This document shows, piece by piece, positions 1-52,761 of a stretch of 64,000 bases of DNA. Below the pieces are notes generated by a model, which worked only from the letters and a program-made list of their open reading frames with translations, did not search any database and was not told the DNA's origin. Each line of letters starts with the position of its first letter. Position 1 is the stretch's first letter. This DNA comes from a virus. Taxonomy: Duplodnaviria; Caudoviricetes. The DNA lies in the IMG/VR virus record IMGVR_UViG_3300013901_000014, positions 14,875-78,874 of that record. One strand, given 5' to 3'. The translations under genes and the position numbers were made by a program.

Positions 1-3000
1 TTGAACGGCATTGTGAACGCCAAGTTGGCCGAGGAGAAGGGCAAAGGCGGTGAAGGCAGGAAGAAGGACTATGTGAAGATAGTGTTGTACACCGAGGACG
101 GGCGGACGTGGAAATACGGTGTTGTGCTGGATGACAAATATGCGCCCAAGAAGACTTCGACCGGCTCCATGCCGTTCTACCTTGGTGACGGCTTCGGCAC
201 GCGGAAGGAGGCGCAGGCATTTGTGGATAAGCACCGCGAGGAGTGGGACGCCAAAATAGCAGACATAGAGAAGGCGCGCCGCGACTTTGTGTATTTCAAA
301 GGCACCGGCGAGCGCACCGGCCAGGACTGGCGCAAGGGTGCTGACGTGAGTGCGGAGCAACTGATGGAGCAGTTCGGCTTCCGCGGCGTGCAGTTTGGCA
401 ACTGGACCAACCAGCGCGACCGGCAGGCTGCGGTGAACGGTGCCTTTGACGCCCTTATGGACTTGGCGCAGATATTGGGAGTGTCGCCGCGCGCGCTGAG
501 CCTGAACGGCGAGCTTGGCCTTGCGTTCGGCTCGCGCGGCGGCGGCAGCGCGAAGGCCCACTACGAGCCGGACGAGGTGGTGATTAACCTCACCAAGACA
601 CAGGGGGCGGGCTCGCTGGCCCACGAGTGGTGGCATGCGCTGGACAACTACTTCGCGCGCCACGGCAACGTGAAGGGCGGCATGGTGACCGAGTCGAAGG
701 GCATAGCGATGCGCGACGAGCTGCGGGAGGCGTTCAACGCCCTCATCGACAGCGTGGCGGGCAGCGACTACAACATCCGCTCGCGCCAGCGCGGCGCCAG
801 CTATTGGGGCCGGCCCGCTGAGGAGACCGCGAGGCTGTTTGCCGCGTGGGTGAGCGACGAGCTGCAGAAGCGCGGCTTGTCGAGTCCGTTCCTTTCTGAC
901 ACCGACCCCGGTGCTGCCGAGCGGTATGCCGAGATGATGTATCGCTTATACAAGGCGATGTATGAGAGTCGCAAGGCGGAGACCGGCGGCAAGGCGATGA
1001 CTTTTGAGGAGTTCAAGAAGACGCCGCTGGCTCTGAGCGGGTTTGTGTTTCCCGGCACGGAGGAGCTTGCGGCATTCGGCGGGCATCTGCGAAACATCTT
1101 CAACACAGTTCAGGAGAAGGTGGACGGGCAGACCGGCAAGACGCTGCTGTATCACCGCGGTCCGGTGGTGGCCGAGCCCAACGAGGCCGAGCAGGCTCTG
1201 CTGGAGGCGGTGAACGGTGTGCTGAAGGACACCGGCATCGAGGTGGTGACCGACACGGACGAGGGCCAGAAAGTGCTGGACGCGGCCAACGGGAATGATG
1301 TCAAGCTGGAGGCGAGCCACAGAAGCGGGGAAGCGGAGGAGCGCAACAAGATGTGGCGCCTCATAGACCGCGCAACGGCCATGTTTACAGGCAAAACAGA
1401 GAAGGAGGCGCGTGAGGCCCGCCGCAAGGAGATGCAAAAAATCACTGCTGAGAGGAAAGAAATGTACGACAGGGTTTTGTCGGGAAACTTCGATGAAGTA
1501 ACTTTGCGGCAGATAGACAACTACATCGATAATTTCTCACCCTACAACAATGAATGGAGACCAATTTCTAAACGACTTCCACAGAAGGCACTACGAGGCT
1601 TGCGAAAAGGAGAACGCGCGAGTGCGGTCGATGTACTTTTCTCACGAATATCTGAAAGCGCAGTCCCAAAGAATGAACGAGCTGGTGCAGAAGGAAAGAG
1701 AAGAATTGAGGAGAAAAAGAAAGAACTCCTCAAAAAGTGGGCAATAGCCACCGGCAACTGGCACACAAGTGTGTCGGACTTCACCGATGCCAAAGAGCCG
1801 CTTGGCAGCGGAAAAGACTCTGACGTATACCAGTCCAAAGACGGAAAGCACGTAATCAAAGTGTCGAAAGGCAAGGACGGCCTTAAGAAGTTCCGCCCCG
1901 ACATTGATGCTGTAACGCTGTTCAACTACATATTCCCTGAAAGTAGATACGAGATTCTGGGCTATGGCGAGGTTGACGGCAAGTTCGTGAAGTTCCTCAA
2001 GCAGCCAGTAGTGGACTTCACCGGCAGCAAACCGCTGTCGGCGGAGGAGCGTGTCGCCTATATGGCCGACATGGGCTTCAAGCCCGTCAACAAGGAGAAG
2101 ACCGCTTTCAGCAACGGCACTATCGTGGTTGCCGACCTGCAGGGCAACAACATCGTCAGAGACAAGTCGGGCAACATCCGCGTGATTGACGCAGACGTGA
2201 AGCTGCACACCAAGGACTTTGGCGGGCAGTACAGCTATCCGCCCGTTGAGGCCGACACCGCCCTGCCTCAAGCCAACAACGGCGGCAATGAAAAGCCGCG
2301 CATGCAGAAGGTGTACCACGGCAGTGGGGCGGACTTCGACGAGTTCGACAACTCGCACATGGGCGAGGGCGAAGGCGCGCAGGCATACGGCTGGGGCACA
2401 TACGTGACCGAGGTTGAGGGAATTGGCCGGACTTATGCGAAAGCGACTGCCCGTTATGATGACAACTCGTCGGAGGAAGTGCTGAATAGGGTCGAATCTT
2501 TGGCCGCAGATTTGATTAAAGACCGCTTCGGCTTTAGGCCGGGGCTTAGCGTTTCGGCCCGCGGTGACAACTACGACTTGGAAATTCCATCGGACAAAAA
2601 GACACTGGAGCAGATTAAATCATATTTCGACGAGTATCCGTATATGTGGAATGCGAAAGTCGACAGGGAATTGAGTTCGTTCAATCTGGACGATGCCGCT
2701 TCAAGAAGAGAGTTTGCCAACTGGGTTTATGAAATTGTTGAGCCGTTTGCGGCGGACGCCGTAGGCTATGCGCAGAAAGAAGAGACCGCCTCCCGCCACC
2801 TCTATACTGTTGAAATTCCCGATGACAACGGCGAGAACTATATTGATTATAATGGCAGGATAAGCGACATTCCATCACAGAAAATAGATGCAATATGCAC
2901 GGAGCTTGAAAAACTCGGATGGAAACGTAAGGACTTGCCGAGCATGGTAAGGCTCACGGATGGCTATGGCAATATAGTACTTAATCCCAATGCTGCGGGA

Positions 3001-6000
3001 GCAGACCTCTACGAGGAGATTAAGGTTGCGTTGAAGAGTCAGAAACTGGCGAGCGAACTGCTGTCAAGAGCCGGCTTTGCCGGCATAAAATACCCTGCTG
3101 AGTATATGAGCGGCGGGCGCAAGGACGGCGCCAAGAACTATGTGATTTTCAACGAGAAGGACGCAAGGATAACCGACCACGTGCGGTTTTTCCGCACGTC
3201 CGGCGGCGAGGCCTACGGCTTCACGGTGGGCGGCAAGATATACGTGGACCCGCGCATAGCCACTGCCGACACGCCGATACACGAGTACGCCCACCTGTGG
3301 GGCGACATGATGCGCCGCGTCAACCCCAAGGCGTGGGGCGACATCGTGCGCCTGATGAAGGGCAAGGGCGGCCTTTGGGACTGGGTGAAGAAGAACTACC
3401 CGGAGCTGGAGACCGACGACGAGGTGGCCGACGAGGTGCTGGCGCAGTTCTCGGGCAAGCGCGGAGCCGAGCGGCTGCGCGAGGAGATGCGCAAGACTGC
3501 CGAGGGCAGCGGCAGCATAACCGAAAAGGCCAAAGCCATAAGCGCGCTGCAGCGGGTGAAGGAGGCCCTTGGCAGGTTTTGGCGCGGAGTGGCCGAGCTG
3601 CTGCACATACGCTTCACCACGGCCGAGGAGGTGGCCGACCGCGTGATGGCCGACCTGCTGCACGGCGTGGACCCGCGCAAGGTCTCTAACGACAACAGAT
3701 ACAACGAGTTTGCCGAAAAACACAAAGTAGACGCAAACGAGGTGAAGGACTATGCCACTGCCATTAAGGATGGCAACCTGATGGCCGCCAATAGGGCATT
3801 AAGTGAAATTCGCCGCACTTTGCGAGTGGCGCACAGGGAAATGAACCTGCAAGAGTTCGGCAAATTCTTTCGGCCAATAAATCAAGAACTGGCAGAGCGG
3901 TTCGGCGATATTGAAAAATTGCGTCAAGAACACATTGCAGCTGCAGAGCGAGAGCACAACGCTATGGAGGCTGCACGCAAGAAAGCCGAAGAGGAGGAAG
4001 CAAAGAAGAGGAAGCGTCAGGAAGAATTGTCAATGCTCACTGCCGACGAGATAGACAAACGCTATGCGGAAGCCCTTGAAAGAGGCGACGAGGCGGCGGC
4101 AAGAGAGATGCTTGACGAGGCTGCACGCCGCAATGGATATGGCGACACGGAGAGCGACTACCAGGGCGTGGGCGCATGGGTGGCCCCTTCCAACCCAGGC
4201 TATGAGAGTGATGAGGCGCGACGCGCCGATGTTGAGGACAATGCGCCTGACGTGAATTTGGAGGACATGGCGTTAGGGTACAACCTACAGCCGGATGACT
4301 ATTTTACGCACCCGGAGCGTTACTCACAGGACACGCCGCACGGACGGGAGTCGACGCAAGCCATACACGCCGCACTCGAAGCGCTGAAGAGAGGCGACAA
4401 GGATGTGAAGGTGAAGGTGTACAGAGCCGTGCCGACATCGGTGAAAGAGGGAAGTCTGAGAAACGGCGACTGGGTGACCCCATCGAGAAAGTATGCCGAG
4501 ATGCACGGAAAGAGCAGGCTGGAAGGCAAATACCGCATCATAGAAGACGAAGTCCCGGCCAAAGACCTTTGGTGGGACGGCAACGATGCCAACGAGTTCG
4601 GATATGATGACGGCAGGGGGTACAAGTACAAGAACACCAAGAACAACAGAAAGCTGAACGACTTGGTGACGCGCGATGATGACGGCAACATCATTCCACC
4701 GTCAAAGCGTTTTAACGAGCGTGAGCAAGATGTGCGCTATTCGCTGCGCCACGTGTTTGGCGGCAACAGCGGCTATGTGGGCTACTCGATGAGCAAGCGC
4801 GCGGCGCAGGCGCGTGAGGACGGACGCTATCCGAAAACCGACTTCCGGAAGGAGTACAGCGTGACGCCGAAGACCTTTGACGCGCTTGTGGACGCTGGCG
4901 TGATTGACAGCGGCGAGTGGCACCACACCAGCATGTATGGCAACAAGACTCCGTTCTACGGGTGGAAGCCCATGTATGACGCAGTGTATGCCGCCAACAA
5001 AAAGGAAGTTGACAAGATGGCGCGGACCCTCAAGATGCAGCAGACTGAGGCTGAGTTTTCGGACTACCTTGACAACGACAACCCTTACCGCTACCGTCCC
5101 ACTTCGGAGGAGTACCAGAAGAAGATGGGCGATATAGACCGGCAAGAGAGTCATGCCGCCAGAGACATAAACCTGATGTATGACGATGCCTACAACCCTG
5201 AGACCGAGCGGAAGAGGATGCAAGAGCTTCAATCGCTACGCGAAAAGAGCGGCAAACTTAAAGACGAGGTGCGCCGCCAATACCCCGAGGACGCAGCGAT
5301 AGAGGCCGAAAACAGGAAAGGTGTCGACTGGCACGTTGAGCAGATTGAGAAGCGCAACAAGGAGAGAGAAGCCCTAAGGCAGAAATTCCATGATTACTTT
5401 GACGCGAAGCGCGACGAGCTCGTGTACGATGAGATGGAAAAGGCTGGCATACTCACTATGGGCGCGGACGGCCCGCATTGGAGCAAGCCTAAATATGCAG
5501 AGATATTCAACCATTATAAAGACGCGGCCATTGACACCATCGCAGAGGCAATGGCTGAAAGGCTGAAGAACCCCTACGACGAGGACTATGCCGAAGGGAT
5601 TTCCGAATACCGGAAAGACCTGCAAAAGGTCAAGGCTGACAAATGGGCTGAAGGCAACGCCTTGAATGCAAAGTATAGGGACAAGGAGTTCCGAAAGCAA
5701 CACCCTGACTACTACAAGCGAGAAAAAATGCTTGAAGAGGAAAAAGAGCGGCTCAGAGAGAAGTATGAGGCTCTTGAGGAAGATGTGCTCAAGCGTCACC
5801 CGGAGGAGTTGGAACGTAGGCAGAAAGCGTTTGAGTGGCCATCTGATGAGGAGGCGCAGCAACAAGCCCGAGAGAAACTACTTGCCGAACGCTTGCAACA
5901 GTTCTTTGAGGAAGACACCGCCGACCCGGACGAGGGGAAGAAGTTTCGTCTGCTGGACGATGACGACCCGCAGGCTCAGGAGCTGTCGCTGCCCGAAGGC

Positions 6001-9000
6001 GAGCCCAAGGAGACGCTTGCGCAGGCCATGGTGCGCCGCGTGAAGGAGCTGGCGGCGAAGCTTGGCGCGAAGGTGCGCATCGTCACCAGCGCCGATGATC
6101 TGCCCAAGACTCCGGGCAGCCGCCAGCGCAGGATGAAGGGCATGTATGACACCCGGACGGGCGAGGTGACAATAGTGATTGGCAACCACGAGAACCTTGC
6201 CGACGTGGAGAACACGGTGCTTCACGAGGCTGTGGGGCACAGGGGCTTTCGCGTGCTGTTTGACACCAAGGAGAAGTTCGACCACGCCATGGACGAGCTG
6301 TACCGCGTGTCGGGCGGGAAAATCAGGAAGTGGATAGACGACAAAGTGCGCAAGCTGTATGACGACGAGGTGGACCGCATAATGGAGCGCAAGCGCAAGG
6401 AGCGCCGCGCCAGGGGCGAGGGCCCGAGCGAGCACCATTTGGAGGACATGGCCGCGGCCGCCATCGAGGCGAGCAAGAAGAAGGACCAGTTCCGCCGCGA
6501 GGCCACCGAGGAATACGGCGCCCGCCTGGCTGGCCGCATAGGCGAGAAGGGCTTTGAGAAGCTGAGCGCGGAGGAGCAGACCTTCTGGGGCAGACTGAAG
6601 TCGATGCTGCAGAAGGCGCTGCAGCGATTGGCCGAGGGGCTGAACATCACCGGCAGGCACGAGTGGACCGACAAGGACTGGGCCTACGTGCTGCACGAGG
6701 CTTACAAGCGCGAGAAGAACGGCGGCAAGCCGAGCATCTTTGACGAGGCCGACACCATAGCCATGCGCATGCGCACCGGCTTCGGCGAGGGCAAAGAGGA
6801 AGGCCGCAAGATGACCACCCTATCAGGGGAAGAGGCCAAGCAGGCTCTTAATGAGATTTTCAGCGCGGAGTCACATACGGTCAAGCCAGAGAAGATTTCG
6901 TCTCTTGCAAAGTTTAGGGATATATTCAGTAAGCCGATACGCACGTTTTTGGGTGAAGTTATAAAGGTCAAGGATGCCGTGTGGAACAAGGTCCTCCGCG
7001 AAAACCGACAGAACATTTCCGGTGCAATACTGCCCACTTTGCAAAATGCGGACTTCGCCATCCGTGATACGGACGGAAGCATACTGTATGTGAAGCGGTT
7101 CTTGAACAGTACGGGAGAATCCACCTATAACGTGGCGGTTGTAAACAAACATGGCGAACTGGAGGACTACATCAGTTCTGTTCACATAAAAACAAATAAC
7201 AACCTGCTGAACAAAATAGGAAAAGGTGCCGAACTGCTAATACCGGAAAACCGGAATGGCTATGGGCACGAAGTCCCAAGCAGTTCAACACCCGATGCAA
7301 AGATAGACATAGAAAACGAAAGCGGCAACACTTTCGGCTCGAATAAGTACAAAAAATCTTCTGATGAGAACCCGGACGAGGGCATGATGTTCCGCGACGG
7401 TGACGATGACGACATTGGCGATGTGGACCTTGGCGACGCTGTGGACAAGATGCGCGATGCGGCAGTGGAGAGCAACGCCAACAACCTGCAGGCCAAGCGC
7501 GAGGCGATGAAGGCCATAGGCGGCAACCTGAGCAAGCTGCGTCAGGCTATGTCGCGGCAGAAGGTGTATGACAAGGGCACTGTGAAGAGCGTGACCGACA
7601 TGGCGCGCGAGATGCTGCAAAACGGCATGCTTGACAAGCTGAGCGGCTACGAGGCCAAGCGCATACTCTCGGCCGCGGCCAACGTGACGGGCGCGGAGAA
7701 CACGGCCAGACAGATTAACAAGCTGATGGACGTGATGGTGGACAACCAGCTGCGCAACGCCGGCGACACATTCGGCAAGCTGCTGCACTCCAAGGGCACG
7801 CGCGTGAACGCAAGCGGCGTGGAGGTGCAGGGCAAGCTCGACCCCGACGGCGCGGCCATAGTGGACGCCCTGAAGAAAGGCGTGCAGCTTGACAAGGAGG
7901 AGCTGAACGGGCGCATCGGCAAAGCGCTTGACAAAATCGGCAGCGAGGACAAGGTCATTGCCGACCAGGCCGCCAACGAGCTGGCCGGCCTGCAGCTGGC
8001 GTCCCGCTACGTGGAGGACATCAAGGGCAGCAAAGCCGAAGAGACAGAACTGCGCGAGAGCCTGAAAGAGGCCAAGGCGCAGAAAGACGCCGGCAAGATG
8101 AGCGCGGAGGCCTACAAGCAGTATTGCGAAGCCACCGAAGATGCCATACGACAGAACAAGATAGAGCGTGCCGACGCCTACCGACAGCTGATTGCACAGC
8201 TTGGCGGAGTGATGGGAGAAAGCGCAGAGCGCGCCAAAGCGTGGCGGGAGGCCGAAAAGCAGCGGGTGCAGGACATTCAGCACAACGCCAACTCGGACAT
8301 GCAGGGCAGGCCGTGTAACGAGCACCACAAACCATCATCACTACAGAAGTTGTGCAACAGCGACCTTATAAGGGGTCTCTTGATGCCACTTGCGACCTTT
8401 GAGCAGATGCTGCGAATGTTCGGCAACAAGAACGTGCACGGTGAGGGCTATCTGTGGAACCGCTTTGTGCGCGGCTGGCTCCGTGCTTCGGAAAACGAAT
8501 ACAGCGGTTACCGCGACGCGCTGAAAGAACTTGACGACAAAGTGAGCGAGATATTCGGCAAGAAGATGCGCTGGGGCGACATATTCAGCCTTGAGCGCAA
8601 GCTGCCCACCATGGAGGTGAAGTTTTGGGACGGCGGAGAGATGAAGCCGCACACGCTGACGCAGGGCAACCTTGCATACATCTACATGGTGGACAAGATG
8701 AGCGACGGGCGCATGAAGCTGCGCGCGATGGGCATCACCGAAGGAGATGTGGAGCAAATCGCAAAAGCACTTGACCCGAAACTGAAGAAACTTGCCGACT
8801 GGATGCAGGACGAGTTCCTGGTGCAGAGGCGCAACAAGTACAACGAGGTGCACAAGCGCATGTTTGGGGCATCGATGGCCGCCATTGAGAACTACTTCCC
8901 GCTGAAGATACTCTCGGGTGCACGCACGGAGAACGTGGATGTGGCGGACGATACCGGTGAGCCTACAATGACATCCACCACCACTGGCAGCATTGTCAAG

Positions 9001-10965
9001 CGCCGCCGCAACAACCTTGCGCTCGACATCACCAATGCAGACGCATTCTCGGTAATTCTTGAGCATTTGCAAGACATGGAGCACTGGGCCGCATACTCAG
9101 AGTTTAACCGCGACCTGAACACGCTGCTATCATACAGGCGGTTCAAGAACCAGGTGATGAACATGAGCAGCGCATACGGAGCCGGTGCAACACTGTGGAA
9201 AAACTTCCGCAATGTGTGCCAGCTGGCGGCTGGTTCATACCGCCCGCCGGTGGCGACACTTGACAAGACAATGGTAAACCTCGCCAAAGGCGTGACCGCT
9301 GCAAAGATTAGCTTCAGAATATTCACCGCCATCAAGCAGTTGCTTTCGTTCCCCGCTTATCTGCCTGACGCGAGCGCAAGGTATCTGCTTCAGAACCTTG
9401 CGAACCCAGTGGGCGCATGGAAATGGAGCATAGAGAACCTGCCGCTATTCCACAAACGATGGAACAGCCGCATGGCAGGCGACCCGCGACTGCTTAAAAC
9501 TGAAATGGACTGGAAGATGTGGCGCAGCCGCGTGGTGCAAATGGCGTCAAAATACGGCATGAGCCCCAACGCATTTGTGGATGCGGTTACCGTGGCAATG
9601 GGTGCGCACGCCATCTACAAGACCAAACTCGCCAAGTACCTCAAGCAGGGCTATGACAAGGACAAGGCCGAAGAGAAGGCGCGCCAAGACGCGGAGATTG
9701 CATACAACCAGACACAGCAGTCAAGCGAAGGTGCGTTCTTGTCGACAATGCAGGCCGACAGAACGTGGGGCAGCGTGCTGTTCACAGTGTTCCGCAACTC
9801 GGCAATGTCGTACACACGTCAGGAGTATGACGCGCTGCGCAACCTTGCGCGCAAGTTGACCACGAAGGGGTACAAGGAAAAGAGCATTGGGTTTATGGCA
9901 AAGCAGATGGTGCGTGACGGCCTTGACGAAAACACCGCATGGAGGAATGCAAAGCGCACATACAGCCGCTCAATATGGCGCGAGTTTGTGCGGGTGGCCA
10001 CGTTCGGCTACATATTGCAGCTTGCGTGGAACCTTGGCGCATACTTGCCGTATCTGTTGCTCGGAGACAACGACGACGACAAGAAGAAGATGCTCGAAGA
10101 CGCAGGACTTCACGCACTTGTTGGCAGCGTGGAGGGCTTGACTGGCGGTGACGTGCTGAGCACAGCCGGCCAGTATGCACTCACGGGCGAGGGCACTATT
10201 GGCAACTTAAAGAAGGAAATGCCACTTACCTCAGACTTGCATGCAATCTACCAGAGCTTCGACTACGATGCAGTGCAAGCCACCAACGACGTGCTGAATT
10301 TGCTTGTGCAGGCAGGCGTGGGCGTTAACCCGCAATCGCTGACCGATGCCGTGGTGGGCGTGATGGACTACTGCGAAAACAACCCGGCAGACGCGCGTGA
10401 GTGCGCATTGCTGATAGCGCGCATATTCAACACTCCGCAGAGCCAGCTCGACAAGATTTATTTCGACGAGATAGACCTTGACGGCAGCGACGCACGCAAA
10501 TTGTCGCCCAAGCAGATTGCCGAGCGCTACGCAAAATACAAACTAAGACGTAACACACCGCTCACTGCTTGGATGTATGGCGAGGACGGCAGAAAGGAGC
10601 GTGTCGCCAAGTATAAAAAAGCAGCCAACGATGTGGCAAAGGAAAGACTTTCGGCGTTGACCGACAGCCGCAGCGGTGAGGACTTCACAGACTGGCGCAA
10701 TGAGTACAAGCAGACATCTGAAGGTTGGGGCCGCATAAACGGGCTGAAGGATACAGACCCCGACCAATATGCGGCAGAAAGGAAGCAAATCGCGGGAACA
10801 CCGGCCGACACACGCTACCGCATAGAGAACCGCTACAAAGCACGCATCAACAAACTGACCGATGCGTGGCTTAAGGCCAAAACACCAGCAAGGCGGATGA
10901 AACTCGCCGATGCGATGGTTGCCCTGAAAAAGGACGAAGCCAAGCATCTTGCAGCGGGTAAGTAG
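1..10965 (+). CDS. Large polyvalent protein (5' truncated), probable virion-ejected protein
   Basis: 3654-aa open frame. LPD1-like zincin (FGFRGVQFGNW...HEWWH, nt ~367-640), polyvalent kinase (LGSGKDSDVY, VIK, DLQGNNI, VIDAD; ~1800-2200), ART-like (VYHGSGADFDEFD...YGWGTY; ~2310-3180), HEYAH (~3280) and HEAVGH (~6223) metallopeptidase motifs, second ART-like (VYRAVP...GDWVT; ~4415-4620), PBECR-like nuclease (~6900-7230), long helical C-terminal part. Confidence 0.9.
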   Translation: MNGIVNAKLAEEKGKGGEGRKKDYVKIVLYTEDGRTWKYGVVLDDKYAPKKTSTGSMPFYLGDGFGTRKEAQAFVDKHREEWDAKIADIEKARRDFVYFKGTGERTGQDWRKGADVSAEQLMEQFGFRGVQFGNWTNQRDRQAAVNGAFDALMDLAQILGVSPRALSLNGELGLAFGSRGGGSAKAHYEPDEVVINLTKTQGAGSLAHEWWHALDNYFARHGNVKGGMVTESKGIAMRDELREAFNALIDSVAGSDYNIRSRQRGASYWGRPAEETARLFAAWVSDELQKRGLSSPFLSDTDPGAAERYAEMMYRLYKAMYESRKAETGGKAMTFEEFKKTPLALSGFVFPGTEELAAFGGHLRNIFNTVQEKVDGQTGKTLLYHRGPVVAEPNEAEQALLEAVNGVLKDTGIEVVTDTDEGQKVLDAANGNDVKLEASHRSGEAEERNKMWRLIDRATAMFTGKTEKEAREARRKEMQKITAERKEMYDRVLSGNFDEVTLRQIDNYIDNFSPYNNEWRPISKRLPQKALRGLRKGERASAVDVLFSRISESAVPKNERAGAEGKRRIEEKKKELLKKWAIATGNWHTSVSDFTDAKEPLGSGKDSDVYQSKDGKHVIKVSKGKDGLKKFRPDIDAVTLFNYIFPESRYEILGYGEVDGKFVKFLKQPVVDFTGSKPLSAEERVAYMADMGFKPVNKEKTAFSNGTIVVADLQGNNIVRDKSGNIRVIDADVKLHTKDFGGQYSYPPVEADTALPQANNGGNEKPRMQKVYHGSGADFDEFDNSHMGEGEGAQAYGWGTYVTEVEGIGRTYAKATARYDDNSSEEVLNRVESLAADLIKDRFGFRPGLSVSARGDNYDLEIPSDKKTLEQIKSYFDEYPYMWNAKVDRELSSFNLDDAASRREFANWVYEIVEPFAADAVGYAQKEETASRHLYTVEIPDDNGENYIDYNGRISDIPSQKIDAICTELEKLGWKRKDLPSMVRLTDGYGNIVLNPNAAGADLYEEIKVALKSQKLASELLSRAGFAGIKYPAEYMSGGRKDGAKNYVIFNEKDARITDHVRFFRTSGGEAYGFTVGGKIYVDPRIATADTPIHEYAHLWGDMMRRVNPKAWGDIVRLMKGKGGLWDWVKKNYPELETDDEVADEVLAQFSGKRGAERLREEMRKTAEGSGSITEKAKAISALQRVKEALGRFWRGVAELLHIRFTTAEEVADRVMADLLHGVDPRKVSNDNRYNEFAEKHKVDANEVKDYATAIKDGNLMAANRALSEIRRTLRVAHREMNLQEFGKFFRPINQELAERFGDIEKLRQEHIAAAEREHNAMEAARKKAEEEEAKKRKRQEELSMLTADEIDKRYAEALERGDEAAAREMLDEAARRNGYGDTESDYQGVGAWVAPSNPGYESDEARRADVEDNAPDVNLEDMALGYNLQPDDYFTHPERYSQDTPHGRESTQAIHAALEALKRGDKDVKVKVYRAVPTSVKEGSLRNGDWVTPSRKYAEMHGKSRLEGKYRIIEDEVPAKDLWWDGNDANEFGYDDGRGYKYKNTKNNRKLNDLVTRDDDGNIIPPSKRFNEREQDVRYSLRHVFGGNSGYVGYSMSKRAAQAREDGRYPKTDFRKEYSVTPKTFDALVDAGVIDSGEWHHTSMYGNKTPFYGWKPMYDAVYAANKKEVDKMARTLKMQQTEAEFSDYLDNDNPYRYRPTSEEYQKKMGDIDRQESHAARDINLMYDDAYNPETERKRMQELQSLREKSGKLKDEVRRQYPEDAAIEAENRKGVDWHVEQIEKRNKEREALRQKFHDYFDAKRDELVYDEMEKAGILTMGADGPHWSKPKYAEIFNHYKDAAIDTIAEAMAERLKNPYDEDYAEGISEYRKDLQKVKADKWAEGNALNAKYRDKEFRKQHPDYYKREKMLEEEKERLREKYEALEEDVLKRHPEELERRQKAFEWPSDEEAQQQAREKLLAERLQQFFEEDTADPDEGKKFRLLDDDDPQAQELSLPEGEPKETLAQAMVRRVKELAAKLGAKVRIVTSADDLPKTPGSRQRRMKGMYDTRTGEVTIVIGNHENLADVENTVLHEAVGHRGFRVLFDTKEKFDHAMDELYRVSGGKIRKWIDDKVRKLYDDEVDRIMERKRKERRARGEGPSEHHLEDMAAAAIEASKKKDQFRREATEEYGARLAGRIGEKGFEKLSAEEQTFWGRLKSMLQKALQRLAEGLNITGRHEWTDKDWAYVLHEAYKREKNGGKPSIFDEADTIAMRMRTGFGEGKEEGRKMTTLSGEEAKQALNEIFSAESHTVKPEKISSLAKFRDIFSKPIRTFLGEVIKVKDAVWNKVLRENRQNISGAILPTLQNADFAIRDTDGSILYVKRFLNSTGESTYNVAVVNKHGELEDYISSVHIKTNNNLLNKIGKGAELLIPENRNGYGHEVPSSSTPDAKIDIENESGNTFGSNKYKKSSDENPDEGMMFRDGDDDDIGDVDLGDAVDKMRDAAVESNANNLQAKREAMKAIGGNLSKLRQAMSRQKVYDKGTVKSVTDMAREMLQNGMLDKLSGYEAKRILSAAANVTGAENTARQINKLMDVMVDNQLRNAGDTFGKLLHSKGTRVNASGVEVQGKLDPDGAAIVDALKKGVQLDKEELNGRIGKALDKIGSEDKVIADQAANELAGLQLASRYVEDIKGSKAEETELRESLKEAKAQKDAGKMSAEAYKQYCEATEDAIRQNKIERADAYRQLIAQLGGVMGESAERAKAWREAEKQRVQDIQHNANSDMQGRPCNEHHKPSSLQKLCNSDLIRGLLMPLATFEQMLRMFGNKNVHGEGYLWNRFVRGWLRASENEYSGYRDALKELDDKVSEIFGKKMRWGDIFSLERKLPTMEVKFWDGGEMKPHTLTQGNLAYIYMVDKMSDGRMKLRAMGITEGDVEQIAKALDPKLKKLADWMQDEFLVQRRNKYNEVHKRMFGASMAAIENYFPLKILSGARTENVDVADDTGEPTMTSTTTGSIVKRRRNNLALDITNADAFSVILEHLQDMEHWAAYSEFNRDLNTLLSYRRFKNQVMNMSSAYGAGATLWKNFRNVCQLAAGSYRPPVATLDKTMVNLAKGVTAAKISFRIFTAIKQLLSFPAYLPDASARYLLQNLANPVGAWKWSIENLPLFHKRWNSRMAGDPRLLKTEMDWKMWRSRVVQMASKYGMSPNAFVDAVTVAMGAHAIYKTKLAKYLKQGYDKDKAEEKARQDAEIAYNQTQQSSEGAFLSTMQADRTWGSVLFTVFRNSAMSYTRQEYDALRNLARKLTTKGYKEKSIGFMAKQMVRDGLDENTAWRNAKRTYSRSIWREFVRVATFGYILQLAWNLGAYLPYLLLGDNDDDKKKMLEDAGLHALVGSVEGLTGGDVLSTAGQYALTGEGTIGNLKKEMPLTSDLHAIYQSFDYDAVQATNDVLNLLVQAGVGVNPQSLTDAVVGVMDYCENNPADARECALLIARIFNTPQSQLDKIYFDEIDLDGSDARKLSPKQIAERYAKYKLRRNTPLTAWMYGEDGRKERVAKYKKAANDVAKERLSALTDSRSGEDFTDWRNEYKQTSEGWGRINGLKDTDPDQYAAERKQIAGTPADTRYRIENRYKARINKLTDAWLKAKTPARRMKLADAMVALKKDEAKHLAAGK
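1476..1506 (+). promoter_or_regulatory. Internal Bacteroidetes sigma-A promoter inside the polyvalent ORF
   Basis: TTTG (1476-1479), 19-nt spacer, TAACTTTG (1499-1506) = exact TTTG-N19-21-TAnnTTTG consensus. Confidence 0.7.
1550..1747 (+). CDS. Nested out-of-frame 65-aa ORF, candidate antitoxin of the downstream kinase domain
   Basis: ATG ~40 nt after a consensus promoter, A at -3 and -6, helical charged peptide; ends immediately before kinase motif I. Confidence 0.55.
   Translation: MNGDQFLNDFHRRHYEACEKENARVRSMYFSHEYLKAQSQRMNELVQKEREELRRKRKNSSKSGQ
7212..7292 (-). ncRNA. Candidate antisense three-way-junction RNA at the end of the PBECR-like domain
   Basis: 14-bp outer stem 7279-7292/7225-7238 (two G-U pairs only on minus strand), inner hairpins 7263-7278 and 7243-7254, U-tract at 7221-7224. 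Confidence 0.55.
7298..7328 (-). promoter_or_regulatory. Antisense promoter inside the polyvalent ORF
   Basis: CAAAGATA at 7298-7305 = TATCTTTG on minus; TTG element 20 nt upstream (7326-7328). Confidence 0.6.
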
Positions 10966-13824: not shown

Positions 13825-15912
13825 CTAAAACGAAGCCTCGGAAATGGCCTTTGCGTGTGGTGCTGAATAGGTGGCGCGGGTGACAATCGCGGGCGGGTCC
13901 ATTTCGCGGAAACAGATATGCAGGCCAATGGCGCGCGTCATCAACAAGTCGTCGTGCTTGCCGATGATAGCGCCGAAAGCCCCATTCGGCTTGCGCTCGT
14001 AGGTAATGTACTCATCAAGACAGCGCGCGTCACGCTCAACATACATGCGCTCGCGAATGACCTTGACCAGCGTGGAGATAATCATAGGCTTGGTTGCGAC
14101 ATTGGTATGAAAGCCATACTTGCGCGGCAGCCCCTCGCGTATCTCCTCCTCAGACTGCTTGCGCTCGTAGAGGTTGGGATACACATCCTTTATCTGATTG
14201 AGGATATAACCAGACTGGTCGCCGTCGACCTGGCGCTGGCGGTCGTGCGTCTCAAGCGTGTTGCTCTCAATCACAAGCAGAGAGTTGTTGTAATAGGCCG
14301 CTATCTGCGCGGCTTTCCACGCCAGCAAGTCAATGTCGATATGCCCATACCATTGTGCGACAACCACCGGTTTGCCGCCGTCAGCCATGAACAAGCGGTC
14401 GAACACGACCACGACCGACCAGTCGGCCTTGTTGCTGCGGCCGCCAACATCGACCACAGTAAGATAGCGGTTGGTGACAATCTCTCTGCCGTCGGGCTCA
14501 GGGTCGGCCCATACCCACAGTTGCCCTTGCGAGTCGTCACGGAAGCGCAGCGACTTGAGGGCATCGCCGCCCTCGTCGCCATCGGCATACACATCGCCTA
14601 TGCGCTTGGGCGCGCGGCAAGCATCGCGGAACCGCTCGACAAGTCCGGCATCAAACACGTGCGCGCCAGAGTTAACAAACGCCTCCACATCATCGCTTGG
14701 GTACTCAGCCGCCATCTGGCCGTGGTCGGTGTACTTGGCGCGCTCGCCAACATACCAGTTAATGGCTTCAAGCGTGGCCCCCTTCTCCCACAGCCGCCAC
14801 AGATAGCGTCCGCTTTCCTCACGGCTCGACACCGCATTGTCGCGCTCACGGTTGAAGTAGAGCCATTGAGCGAACTCCACGGCATCGTCAAGCGGCTGCG
14901 AGTATGCCTCAATGTCGAACCACGAAACGAACATAGCCTCGAACTGCGAGCGCTTCTGCGGGTCCTTGGCGTCATCATACTCACGCTGAAAAAAGTTGCC
15001 CGTGCCGTTGGCAGTGCTTTCGTAGACAATCATAGTGTAAGGCTTGAGCAGAATACCAGAGCAGGCCGACCGCACAATATCCTCCGGCTTCTTTCCTTCG
15101 GTGGCTTTCCACAATCCCACCTCCGAAAGATGGACAAGGTTGTAGTCGCCGCCGCGGCAGGAGTCGGGCCGTTCAGCCGTACCGATTTTGATTTTGCAGT
15201 TGCGCTGCGGCACACGGAATATGGAGCCGGATCGTCCGACGCCCACAATCTTAGGCTCGTTCTCGTTGTACCGTTCGCCAAGTTGGTGCAGCATACTTAC
15301 CGGGTAAACCTTAATCATGCGGTCGAACATGTCCTTGATTTCGTCAGAGCCCGCACCCTGATGGGCAATGATGAGCGAGTTAAGGCCCACCTGGTGGACA
15401 AGCTGCAACCACGCCATATAGATTTGCGAAGTGGTAGAACCGCCCCACTGGCGTGCCTTGAGCAGCACTATGCGTATAGGCTTGCCCGCAAGACGCAGCG
15501 ACTCCAACCGCGCCACAAAGCGGCGCTGCGGGCGCGTGAGACGGAACAGCACATCATTGCCGCCGCCCTTGTTTTTGATGTAGACAAACATAGCCGCCCA
15601 AAAAGGGAAGTCGTGCTTGCAGCGCACGCGCACGAGCTGGTCTACAACCTTGTGCCGCTCCTCATCAGACGGCTCTACATTGAGCTTGGCAGACAGAAAC
15701 TCATCGACACTGCCGCACTCCACAACCTGCTTCACCAGCGGTACGGAAAGCATGGAGGCGGGCAGCCACTGCTCGGCCAGCGGGAAGTCGGGCAAGCGCA
15801 CAAGCGTGCGCTCGCCGACAGAGCCAAGGCCGGTAATAGGATTGAAAGGCGCATTAATCTCAGCGTTGCGCCGCTCATTCTCTTTGAGTATGTCTTCTAT
15901 CTCCTTTTCCAT
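13825..15912 (-). CDS. terL: Terminase large subunit, phage A
   Basis: IVLLKARQWGGST Walker A, IVYESTANG Walker B region, LTVVDVGG and KHDDLLM RNase H-like nuclease motifs; start set at MEKEIED. Confidence 0.9.
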   Translation of the reverse strand: MEKEIEDILKENERRNAEINAPFNPITGLGSVGERTLVRLPDFPLAEQWLPASMLSVPLVKQVVECGSVDEFLSAKLNVEPSDEERHKVVDQLVRVRCKHDFPFWAAMFVYIKNKGGGNDVLFRLTRPQRRFVARLESLRLAGKPIRIVLLKARQWGGSTTSQIYMAWLQLVHQVGLNSLIIAHQGAGSDEIKDMFDRMIKVYPVSMLHQLGERYNENEPKIVGVGRSGSIFRVPQRNCKIKIGTAERPDSCRGGDYNLVHLSEVGLWKATEGKKPEDIVRSACSGILLKPYTMIVYESTANGTGNFFQREYDDAKDPQKRSQFEAMFVSWFDIEAYSQPLDDAVEFAQWLYFNRERDNAVSSREESGRYLWRLWEKGATLEAINWYVGERAKYTDHGQMAAEYPSDDVEAFVNSGAHVFDAGLVERFRDACRAPKRIGDVYADGDEGGDALKSLRFRDDSQGQLWVWADPEPDGREIVTNRYLTVVDVGGRSNKADWSVVVVFDRLFMADGGKPVVVAQWYGHIDIDLLAWKAAQIAAYYNNSLLVIESNTLETHDRQRQVDGDQSGYILNQIKDVYPNLYERKQSEEEIREGLPRKYGFHTNVATKPMIISTLVKVIRERMYVERDARCLDEYITYERKPNGAFGAIIGKHDDLLMTRAIGLHICFREMDPPAIVTRATYSAPHAKAISEASF

Positions 15913-27131: not shown

Positions 27132-27149
27132 GACAACCACACAACGGAG

Positions 27150-27173
27150 AGGCGGCCAAGTGCCGCCTTTTTT
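27150..27173 (+). terminator. Intrinsic terminator ending the late operon
   Basis: AGGCGGC-CAAGT-GCCGCCT then TTTTT. Confidence 0.85.
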
Positions 27174-27256
27174 GCTATATAAAAGATGAGCCGCGGCAAT
27201 GAAGCCACGGCCCAAAGGTGTTATAAGAGCAAAAAATAATTGCTTGTACAAAGATA
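27168..27256 (-). ncRNA. Candidate minus-strand rod-shaped RNA with own -7 box, directly downstream of int
   Basis: CAAAGATA 27249-27256 (TATCTTTG on minus); 9-bp IR 27168-27176/27228-27236; inner 10-bp stem with two minus-strand G-U pairs. Confidence 0.4.
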
Positions 27257-27284: not shown

Positions 27285-28454
27285 TTAACGATTTTCGGAA
27301 CCCGGGCCAACCACGGCATCAATGACGCGGCGGTTGGCGATGTCGACCTTCGAGCGGTCGAAGCGGATGTAAATGTCCGTAACCGAGCCGCTGGAGTGGC
27401 CCAGGCCCTCGGCGATGACCTCCTTCGGCACATCAAGCTCGGCCGCCGCCGTGGCCCAGGAATGCCGTGCCCAGTAGGTGGTGAGCTGGCCAAAGCCAGG
27501 CAGCCGGTGAAGCCCGGCGTTTATTTGCATATTCGCGCTGCGCAAATCGGAATAGCGCTCATGCAGGTCGAGGAGCCACACACCGCCGGGCGAGCGGTAG
27601 CGCTCAATGAGTGCCGCTGCCTCGGGCTCCACCTTTATATCGTAGAGGTGGCCCGTTTTGGCGCGCCGGTAGCTGAGACGGCCGCCGCTGTAGTCCTCGG
27701 CCCGGAGGCTGAAGAGGTCCGTTGCGTTGATGCCCATCAGCAGGAAGATGAGGCGGAACATGTCGAGGGCAAAGGCCTCCAGCGCGCCAGCGGGCTGAAG
27801 CGTCCACAACGAGCGCAAGGCTAACAGCTCAAGCGACCGCTTCGCGGTTGGCTCTTTCTTGAGCTTATAGCGGCGGAACGGATACGCGGTTGTCGCCTCA
27901 TCATCGATGGCGGCATTGAACACCGCCCGGAGGCATCGAAGATAAAGCCCGCATGTGTTAAGGCAGTTGCCGCGCGCAAGGTTCCATGACACAAACCCGT
28001 CCAGCCATTGCCGGTTGACCTCGTCGAAAGTAACCGAGGCGAACCCGGGGCACCAGGCGCGCAGGGCCGACAGCGCCGTGGCGTAAGCGTGCCGGGAATT
28101 GGCGCTGCGGCGCGAGTTCATCACACGCTCGAAGTAGGGCAGGAGGAGGTTTGCCTTCGCCGGCTTCTCGGGCTCATAGAAGCGGGCCAGGAGCGCGGTG
28201 CGGATGTCGGCAAGCGGCATGCCCTGCATATCGAGCAGCGCGGCCTCGATGTCGAGGTAACGGCGCATCAGGTAGTTGTTATAAGCGGCGCGGCTGGGGT
28301 GCTTCACCACGCGCTGGGCGCGGGCGTCCCACTGCCCCGGGGCGAGGCTGATGTTAGTAGGCAGATAGACCGCGGAGTTCTTTTTGCGGATTGCGAATTT
28401 AAGCGGCGAGAGGTCCTTGCCGTGACGGGTATCGAGATAAAGCGAAAGTTTCAT
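27285..28454 (-). CDS. int: Tyrosine integrase (Bacteroidales arm-binding + SAM-like + catalytic domains)
   Basis: GINATDL, YRRAKTG, YWARHSWATAA, LGHS...VTDIYIR catalytic motifs; start MKLSLYLD at 28454. Confidence 0.92.
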   Translation of the reverse strand: MKLSLYLDTRHGKDLSPLKFAIRKKNSAVYLPTNISLAPGQWDARAQRVVKHPSRAAYNNYLMRRYLDIEAALLDMQGMPLADIRTALLARFYEPEKPAKANLLLPYFERVMNSRRSANSRHAYATALSALRAWCPGFASVTFDEVNRQWLDGFVSWNLARGNCLNTCGLYLRCLRAVFNAAIDDEATTAYPFRRYKLKKEPTAKRSLELLALRSLWTLQPAGALEAFALDMFRLIFLLMGINATDLFSLRAEDYSGGRLSYRRAKTGHLYDIKVEPEAAALIERYRSPGGVWLLDLHERYSDLRSANMQINAGLHRLPGFGQLTTYWARHSWATAAAELDVPKEVIAEGLGHSSGSVTDIYIRFDRSKVDIANRRVIDAVVGPGSENR

Positions 28455-28699
28455 TTTTGGTGCATTGTTTTGAACATTGTCGGCGCTGCAAAGGGCAGCA
28501 GCCGCGGGCGGAAAAGTGCGAAAATAATGCACCCCGGAAGCGCCCGGGAGCATTGCCGGCAAACGAATGCCGCATAAATAAAGGGCCGGCGGCTTTGCGC
28601 GCACAACTCTTATTACTTATTTATAGCGCTTTCGCAATTATTTTATTTTCAGACAGTTGTGATTTGGCCGCGAAATCGGTGCATTGTTGTTGCACTTTT
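28455..28699. other. Putative intact attP
   Basis: 22-bp inverted arm-like sites AAAAGTGC-N6-AATGCACC at 28512-28533 and 28678-28699, third GGTGCATTGTT at 28459-28469, AT-rich centre. Confidence 0.6.
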
Positions 28700-52689: not shown

Positions 52690-52761
52690 CGCGGGGTGGA
52701 GCAGCGGCAGCTCGTCAGGGTCATGACCTGAAGGTCGTCGGTTCGAGTCCGGCCCCCGCCA
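52690..52761 (+). tRNA. tRNA-Met (CAT), initiator-like, no encoded CCA
   Basis: Full cloverleaf: CGCGGGG/CCCCGCC acceptor (C1:C72 mismatch), GAGC/GCTC D stem, TCAGG/CCTGA anticodon stem with loop GTCATGA, GTCGG-TTCGAGT-CCGGC T arm. Confidence 0.9.

Follow-up and report, generated by a model that had tools for sequence, protein, structure and literature searches.

A predicted antisense RNA gene overprinted on the tail of an RNase-like cassette in a phage polyvalent protein gene

Within the genome of a virus of the class Caudoviricetes (IMG/VR record IMGVR_UViG_3300013901_000014), the end of an RNase-like domain in a giant polyvalent protein gene appears to carry a second message on its opposite strand: a small RNA (sRNA) gene with its own promoter, a branched fold and a terminator-like end, at 7210-7328 of the DNA analysed here. 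That DNA, called the window, is the 64-kb stretch from base 14875 to base 78874 of the record, which has 78,874 bp and a GC content of 58%; positions refer to the window unless the genome is named. Comparison with homologues identifies the element as a structured non-coding RNA with strand-specific compensatory conservation that belongs to no described Rfam family, and the case for a functional antisense RNA gene is as strong as sequence analysis can make it. The linkage of such antisense sRNA genes to RNase-like cassettes also appears to be real, judging from its recurrence behind several domain families. The role of the RNA can be described more tentatively. The reading that we favour, with a probability of about 0.42, is that of an RNA antidote that would bind and block the RNase module and would act, in addition, through antisense pairing.

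The predicted antisense RNA and its promoter

A sequence-only reading of this DNA, made without database searches, had described on the minus strand a TATCTTTG box with TTG upstream of it across a spacer of 20 nucleotides (nt), a 14-bp stem of GGUGUUGAACUGCU and AGCAGUUCGGCACC containing two U.G pairs, two hairpins (UGGGAC-UUC-GU(G)CCCA and CCGG-UUUU-CCGG), and a tail, UUUUCCUAUUUU, at 7224-7213. All of these elements are present (Table 1). The minimum-energy structure given by RNAfold for the minus strand is the fold that had been proposed (-33.5 kcal/mol, z -4.34, with 0/200 shuffles as good), and it is stronger than that of the plus strand (-26.2 kcal/mol, z -2.71). The RNA probably has its 5' end 4-7 nt past the -7 box and its 3' end in the U tract. 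As in rho-independent terminators, the 14-bp stem P1 is followed at once by UUUUCCUAUUUU, and this order is conserved; the stem closes a multiloop, which is atypical for what remains a predicted terminator. On the coding strand, the U-rich tail is encoded by NKI(K/G)(K/N)G codons, among which ATA and AAA are nearly fixed.

Homologous DNA was gathered from IMG/VR, GTDB genomes and metagenomes at 54-92% protein identity. Alignment A3 contains 33 distinct gap-free sequences, and alignment A6 contains 35 after the addition of two that are more distant. When RNAalifold was applied to the 35 sequences without a supplied structure, the Y shape was obtained again, with 23 pairs of which 8 are compensatory; covariation among homologues, which the sequence-only reading had named as a check on its proposal, is found. 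By pair counting, 98% of cells are paired and 37 are double-changed, a result equalled by 0/500 shuffles; in slid controls the maximum is 2 pairs and 7 cells. The structure had also been assigned to the minus strand alone, on the grounds that its U-G pairs would be C-A mismatches on the plus strand. This assignment is borne out in the homologues, where the non-Watson-Crick pairs comprise 69 G.U on the minus strand versus 2 A.C, the kind that the plus strand would read as G.U. In 12/12 loci tested the more favourable fold is that of the minus strand; the plus strand also beats shuffles (z -1.2 to -5.0).

Pairing is maintained in each of the helices while the sequence changes. In P1, the window lineage has GAACUGCU / AGCAGUUC compared with GAAUUGUU / AACAAUUC in most others; pairs 71-120 and 74-117 alternate between U-A and C-G, and a change from Asn-Asn to Ser-Ser is offset by synonymous changes in two Leu codons. 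For P2, pairing is kept as CGGGG/UCCCG, UGAGC/GCUCA or CGGAAC/GUUCCG as the peptide shifts between DGTLFR, DELLAQ and YGHEVP. The codons that form P3 are CCG in 32/33 sequences and CGG in 32/33, and the fourth pair of this hairpin covaries between U.G, A-U and G-C. Partly invariant columns of A3 in the junction and loops are T92, G94, A97 and A113. A covariance model, R1, gives 88.5 bits (E 1e-20) at the site, which is its sole match in the phage genome. In five metagenome-assembled genomes (MAGs) the model finds one or two copies each, every copy in the context of the domain; one of these, a paralogue within a related element, lies 12 kb away and has a TATCTTTG to itself.

The predicted promoter follows the rules of the phylum Bacteroidota, in which the sigma-ABfr consensus consists of TAnnTTTG at -7 and TTTG near -33 (PMC7366714). 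Both elements are found at the site, with the window carrying TTG, short of the full TTTG. The -7 box occupies the same column in 33/33 homologues and varies at the two 'nn' positions only; on the coding strand it corresponds to Ala(GCA)-Lys/Asn(AAn)-Val/Leu/Ile(nTA). TTG is located 19-21 nt upstream of the box in 31/33 sequences, and in 11/12 clusters of upstream sequences (<70% identical), and every other spacing window scores 0-1; the protein sequence of this region is non-conserved. The two clearest intergenic promoters of the phage read TTG-N20-TATCTTTGCAGCG and the site reads TTG-N20-TATCTTTGCATCG; the arrangement common to them is TTG-N20-TATCTTTGCA. In the more distant homologues L047 and L048 the -7 box is shifted ~6 nt upstream, and the fold is kept with further compensations. 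A scan for sigma-70 promoters gave none at the site, the sigma-70 model being irrelevant to a Bacteroidota host.

The codons over the RNA are constrained at the level of nucleotides. Among columns whose residue is conserved, the 23 that overlap the RNA have a normalised synonymous codon entropy of 0.20, versus 0.69 for the 76 in the domain core (Mann-Whitney p=3.7e-9). When a residue is shared, so is its codon in 86% of cases over the RNA versus 54% in the core; amino-acid identity is similar in the two regions (71% and 67%, respectively). A 92%-identical relative, L002, has an identical block of 119 nt over the promoter and RNA, with diverged flanks. A separate, terminator-like hairpin (CGAAAG..CUUUCG, then UUUUCU; 7317-7336, minus strand) overlaps the -33 region in the window lineage and L002 only; other homologues are without it.

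The peptide encoded opposite the RNA, GAELLIPENRNGYGHEVPSSSTPDAKI, forms the end of a domain of ~150 amino acids (aa), and the motif GAELLLPxxRxxDGxxSRNNSTPxAK[VLI] is found in >100 homologues. After about Arg2418 the tail is predicted by AlphaFold2 (AF2) to be disordered, with a predicted local distance difference test (pLDDT) score of ~39. The pattern of conservation beyond this residue is, on the evidence of codon use, that of the RNA and not that of the protein. The sequence-only reading had regarded the peptide as a non-domain linker dictated by the RNA. The codon data and the predicted disorder agree with a tail that is largely dictated by the RNA; the description as an unconserved linker has to be given up, since GAELLIP belongs to the last strand of the domain and the motif is shared by so many homologues. 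The alternative of a plain conserved protein motif, with the RNA as an accident, was dropped on the codon-level data.

Several other identities for the element were considered and rejected. A comparison of 6500-8000 with Rfam 15 gave no match at E<=10, and the only gathering-score match in the window is a tRNA (52690-52761); ARAGORN found no tRNA or tmRNA at the site. A hammerhead or other three-way-junction ribozyme was set aside because junctions of 0-1, 8 and 4 nt misfit the hammerhead core (by eye) and Rfam gave no match. An antisense protein-coding gene is contradicted by stops in all three antisense frames across homologues, with no conserved open reading frame (ORF). The FopS/GibS family is a different, intergenic family of sRNAs (PMC11697453). 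Tandem Repeats Finder detected no tandem repeat at the RNA locus.

Table 1. Positions in the window of the predicted antisense RNA, its promoter and the coding features that surround it.
Feature	Position	Strand	Evidence
3' part of the polyvalent protein gene hosting the element	1..10965	+	ORF list, translation, Pfam
Low-GC in-frame cassette: BECR-like domain, tail, antisense RNA gene and promoter	6790..7356	+	GC, comparison with L001
Core of RNase-like (BECR-like, unclassified) domain	6868..7245	+	Homologues, AF2, structure comparison
Dual-coding tail codons (GAELLIPENRNGYGHEVPSSSTPDAKI) over the RNA and -7 box	7225..7305	+	Synonymous entropy, codon use, pLDDT
-33 element TTG	7326..7328	-	20-nt spacer to -7 box
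-7 element TATCTTTG, sigma-ABfr type TAnnTTTG	7298..7305	-	33/33 homologues
Predicted sRNA, ~85 nt	7210..7294	-	RNAfold, RNAalifold on 35 sequences, covariance model
P1 5' arm (GGUGUUGAACUGCU), closing stem	7279..7292	-	99.8% of P1 cells paired
P2 hairpin	7263..7278	-	4/5 pairs changed on both sides in homologues
Junction strand J2/3 (UAGCCAUU)	7255..7262	-	Invariant columns T92, G94, A97 of alignment A3
P3 hairpin CCGG-UUUU-CCGG, from Pro and Arg codons	7243..7254	-	Codon use, covariation
P1 3' arm (AGCAGUUCGGCACC), closing stem and likely terminator stem	7225..7238	-	RNAfold, pair counts, RNAalifold
U-rich tail directly after P1, intrinsic-terminator-like	7210..7224	-	Conserved as UUUNUUUAUUUU

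The cassette and related domains

The ORF that hosts the element encodes 6123 aa (genome 7468-25839) and includes the Pfam domains Kinase-PolyVal, LPD1, LPD5 and ART-PolyVal, with MuF_C further upstream. This domain content places it among the polyvalent proteins as defined by Iyer et al. 2017 (PMC5512222). MAGs of Muribaculaceae, Bacteroidaceae and Tannerellaceae and phage contigs from gut metagenomes contain close relatives, which points to a Bacteroidales bacterium as the host and, in turn, to sigma-ABfr as the applicable promoter grammar.

The element is part of a cassette with a GC content of 46.8% versus 62-64% in its flanks. In L001, a relative of the giant protein, both flanks are kept (..RTGFGE and SDDENPDEGMMFR..) with another module between them; the replacement has neither TAnnTTTG nor the RNA, so that domain, RNA and promoter are missing together. 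This swap and the contrast in GC content indicate that the domain and its tail are moved together with the RNA and promoter, as a single in-frame cassette. Some elements carry two domain-plus-RNA cassettes, in some cases as a tandem pair spaced by 600 nt and in others separated by 30 kb (L004:412-492 and 1009-1089; OGNQ01000264.1, which is L024 and L027; L065-L067). Just past the cassette of the window, a coding repeat of 15 nt in 2.2 copies (7404-7436, plus strand) encodes the acidic peptide DDDIGDVDLGD.

More than 400 homologues of the domain were found, in polyvalent proteins. An AF2 model made from a trimmed, deeper alignment (pLDDT 72, predicted template modelling score 0.70) has helices followed by a four-stranded sheet; an earlier model, with pLDDT 57, had given an uninformative fold search. 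The top rows of the structure comparison (VIA) are mostly BECR toxins (CdiA-CT, colicin D, colicin E5, BrnT, RelE, ParE and YoeB), at Z values of 3-4.2 that are not significant alone, and H, K and R residues in the domain (SSVHIK, YVKR) are conserved in sequence. A BECR-like domain is plausible from this model. The sequence-only reading had gone further and called it a PBECR-like nuclease: the structural part of this claim finds agreement in matches that are weak and consistently to BECR toxins, and the assignment to PBECR found no match in Pfam. A comparison by hhalign of the domain with an alignment of MuF_C tails gave no homology, which is weak evidence as the alignments are gappy. A tblastn search of GenBank phages and PLSDB plasmids gave no match to this domain or to the MuF_C-type domain.

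The same arrangement is seen behind other domains of the PBECR type, a class in which MuF-C has been included (PMC5512222). A second site is located ~1.5 kb before the window (genome 13210-13340; L051:1711-1841), in the MuF_C tail of the same giant gene; it has TTG-N20-TATCTTTG, with the -7 box at genome 13302-13309, and a structured RNA closed at its ends. Antisense TAnnTTTG is at the same position in the MuF_C tails of 12 IMG/VR homologues, most of them with TTG ~20 nt upstream. The RNA predicted in these tails has a long closing stem, a hairpin loop AAUUGGG and 22 pairs (8 compensatory), followed by a U-rich tail. Within some MuF_C tails the RNA-coding segment is partly duplicated internally.

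A scan of six giant genes, ~70 kb in all, for the full promoter pattern gave 12 antisense versus 3 sense matches, and the three on the sense strand represent one conserved site ahead of the kinase domain. Of the antisense promoters, 10/12 lie no more than ~50 aa beyond a domain of the PBECR type (three cases of PBECR1, one each of PBECR3 and MuF_C, and five of the present domain). Expressed by domain, an antisense promoter follows 10/12 PBECR-type domains versus 2/24 other Pfam domains (Fisher p=1.5e-5). In a survey of PBECR1, the full antisense promoter was found 122-148 aa past the start of the domain in 24/26 IMG/VR loci (25-62% identity), compared with 1/26 in the upstream control zone, 0/26 on the sense strand and 0/26 in the core. 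At the PBECR1 loci (L079:~1014, L080:~4972, L082:~1120, L083-L117), the promoter is mostly followed, as judged by eye, by ~90 nt of putative RNA that has a U tract and a closing stem whose sequence differs between loci. The sequences of the RNAs in the four domain families are unrelated to each other. The tie between the RNA and BECR/PBECR-type domains, which had been suggested from a single site, thus holds in four families.

Other sites in these genes and in the window share some of the same motifs. In L081, antisense promoters lie at ~1248 (aa ~316), in the tail of LPD13, and at ~5298 (aa ~1666), ~100 aa after Methyltransf_23; LPD13 may be another RNase-like module, or the link with PBECR may not be absolute. 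The conserved sense-strand promoter, TTTG-N19-TAACTTTG (1476-1506, plus strand), is inside the giant ORF just 5' of Kinase-PolyVal, and the protein sequence around it, D[ED]VTLR.ID.YI, is shared by three giant genes (that of the window, L079 and L002). It is a possible internal promoter, from which a shorter product would be made. Elsewhere in the window, TATCTTTG at 27256-27249 (minus strand) is followed by a fold of ~100 nt (27140-27256; -45.1 kcal/mol, z -6.4), the strongest of the window. This structure is ~30 nt downstream of the minus-strand ORF 27285-28604 and is a candidate intergenic sRNA or terminator cluster.

Possible roles of the RNA

The explanation that we consider best starts from the host-type sigma-ABfr promoter, TTG-N20-TATCTTTG, at which transcription would start at ~7293. 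The transcript of ~85 nt would fold as a three-way junction, and its 14-bp closing stem, together with the U tract, would also end transcription. This RNA gene, overprinted antisense on the disordered tail of a cassette in a virion-delivered polyvalent protein, could provide the cassette's own antidote, so that the RNase module would be kept harmless to the phage's own cell and transcripts. In the leading mechanism the RNA would bind and inhibit the RNase domain directly, in a manner of working similar to type III toxin-antitoxin (TA) systems, and pairing with the complementary sense mRNA would inevitably add a further layer. Because the RNA gene is located within the codons of the domain, the two are inseparable during cassette shuffling; the antidote reading is favoured because an unsplittable pair of toxin and antidote is the property that an antidote would need. 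That the RNA recurs in such close company with RNase-like or RNA-binding domains, and with no other type of module, suggests the domain itself as its target.

Known systems with which the element can be compared include lambda OOP and the type I antitoxins of RatA/TxpA and SR4/BsrG, with SymR/SymE and RalA/RalR as examples for nuclease toxins. Similar to OOP and the 3'-overlapping type I antitoxins, the predicted RNA is short (~77-100 nt), structured, encoded by a mobile element and antisense to a coding end, with its own promoter and intrinsic terminator, and it wholly overlaps the tail codons 7225-7305. It is different in that it occupies a domain boundary midway through an 18-kb ORF, travels in an in-frame domain cassette and folds as a three-way junction closed at both ends. 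Its partner is a domain of ~150 aa in a 6123-aa protein, not a small toxic peptide or stand-alone toxin.

In type III systems (ToxIN, AbiQ/antiQ, CptIN) a structured small RNA neutralises an endoribonuclease to which it is tightly linked genetically, as is proposed here. The sequence-only reading had drawn this analogy, and it fails as a statement of membership: there is no array of tandem repeats, the RNA is antisense and embedded inside the 3' tail, not upstream in the sense direction behind a terminator, and the fold of the putative toxin is BECR-like here versus ToxN/Kid-like there. The nature of the toxin excludes the element from type I, and the lack of repeats and the gene order exclude it from type III; only a working logic may be shared with these systems.

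Within the host phylum, the cis-antisense RNAs of Bacteroides include the DonS family and the 78 antisense RNAs of Bacteroides thetaiotaomicron (PMC7366714). The present RNA resembles them in its phylum-specific promoter grammar (TAnnTTTG with TTTG), its size range and its extensive folding. The RNAs of Bacteroides are located opposite the 5' regions of susC-type genes or are intergenic, and none is described as overprinted on the domain tail of a phage polyvalent protein (PMC7366714). PBECR and MuF-C have been predicted to be metal-independent RNase or RNA-binding modules, shuffled as cassettes in giant proteins that are packaged in virions or delivered by conjugation (PMC5512222). The protein context is the same here, but the domain at 6868-7245 fits none of the Pfam models of that work. 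Word searches of this founding paper on polyvalent proteins (PMC5512222) gave no instance of 'antisense' or 'noncoding RNA', so that an RNA partner does not appear to be part of its account. These RNAs were found described neither in the literature searched nor in Rfam, which is absence of evidence only.

A number of observations weigh against the antidote reading, or against parts of it. Many of the 35 aligned sequences are closely related, so that they amount to ~8-12 independent lineages. Neither the domain of the window nor 11 homologues match the Pfam models PBECR1-5 and MuF_C at E<=10, Foldseek finds nothing at E<=0.001, and the best structural Z is 4.2. Two of the 12 antisense promoters follow regions other than PBECR, and one PBECR5 domain is without a promoter. 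Type III antitoxins are tandem repeats processed by the toxin, whereas this RNA is single-copy and repeat-free. A mechanism similar to type I or OOP antisense RNAs explains the anatomy equally well, and the sequence evidence fits action at the level of the protein and of the mRNA alike.

Nearly as likely as the antidote, if itself on the doubtful side, is a purely cis-antisense regulator of the lambda OOP or type I kind, which would pair with the giant mRNA and leave the protein domain untouched. Duplex cleavage or a translation block would then lower the amount of polyvalent protein at such times as lysogeny or the period that precedes the late phase. The complementarity with the mRNA is perfect by construction, the RNA has its own predicted promoter and terminator, its compact and hairpin-rich form is like that of CopA, Sok and OOP, and the overlap with the 3' end of a coding unit is like that of OOP, RatA and SR4. 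Furthermore, cis-antisense RNAs of 78-128 nt in Bacteroides fold extensively and repress their sense genes (PMC7366714). Regulation of this kind leaves unexplained why placement is near-exclusively behind PBECR-type domains, with kinase, ART, methylase, InPase and ParB modules of these genes lacking such RNAs, and a mid-message cut in an 18-kb mRNA would silence all modules equally. It is more improbable that the RNA is a trans-acting or decoy sRNA unrelated to the domain, directed at host mRNAs, mimicking a host RNA or opposing RNA-guided defence, that is housed in a permissive disordered linker and owes its presence in PBECR cassettes to common descent. An RNA gene is most easily overprinted on a disordered tail, the partly invariant T92, G94, A97 and A113 could be a seed or recognition surface, and the host-type promoter would make early synthesis from the incoming DNA possible. 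However, unrelated RNA sequences in the four domain families imply that there is no common target, a tie to one domain class that has persisted through very old divergence speaks for a functional connection, and in the phage genome and five MAGs the covariance model has no match that stands free of the domain.

Two further readings do without a stable or a functional RNA. In one, to which we give very little weight, the pairing acts in the sense mRNA as a translational pause, in single-stranded DNA (ssDNA), or as a recombination signal at the ends of cassettes. The location of the element exactly at the boundary of cassette and domain would suit such a role, as would the better-than-shuffled folding of the plus strand. 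Against it, the strong bias of G.U over A.C indicates the minus strand, a complete promoter upstream and a U tract downstream are conserved on that same strand, and the -33 element is outside the structure, so that an ssDNA hairpin promoter is a misfit. In the other, a chance inverted repeat coincides with a chance promoter-like motif in coding sequence. Among 8,522 stretches of 90 nt in the 64 kb, the fold of the site lies only ~2.9 standard deviations below the GC-adjusted mean and outside the top 30; this distance, and the frequency of TAnnTTTG in the window (26 observed versus 15.8 expected), are in line with chance, and one sequence by itself is unconvincing. All comparative results are contrary: they raise the site far above chance, and this reading is refuted as far as sequence analysis can refute it, leaving it a negligible probability.

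Possible producer protection and dual coding in polyvalent proteins

Polyvalent proteins are a major class of weapons of phages and conjugative elements, and we know of no explanation of how their toxic modules spare the producer. An sRNA gene in the RNase cassette, conserved in hundreds of gut-phage sequences, would be a concrete answer to this question of producer protection. More widely, PBECR-class modules of Bacteroidota phages and mobile elements might carry an unrecognised immunity, in the form of an RNA antidote overprinted on their own tail, although we regard a generalisation of this breadth as rather unlikely. Made from a host-type promoter, such an antidote could also be a timer, with the injected RNase acting first and the incoming genome then switching it off. 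If true, it would constitute a new class of TA-like system, with dual-coding tails in which the protein sequence is set by the RNA. The RNAs would add several structured families to the sparse RNA catalogue of Bacteroidota, and the tail would be a clean case of dual coding in which a peptide is shaped by an antisense RNA. For the annotation of genomes, conserved 'linker' motifs together with suppressed synonymous variation in giant ORFs can flag hidden RNA genes.

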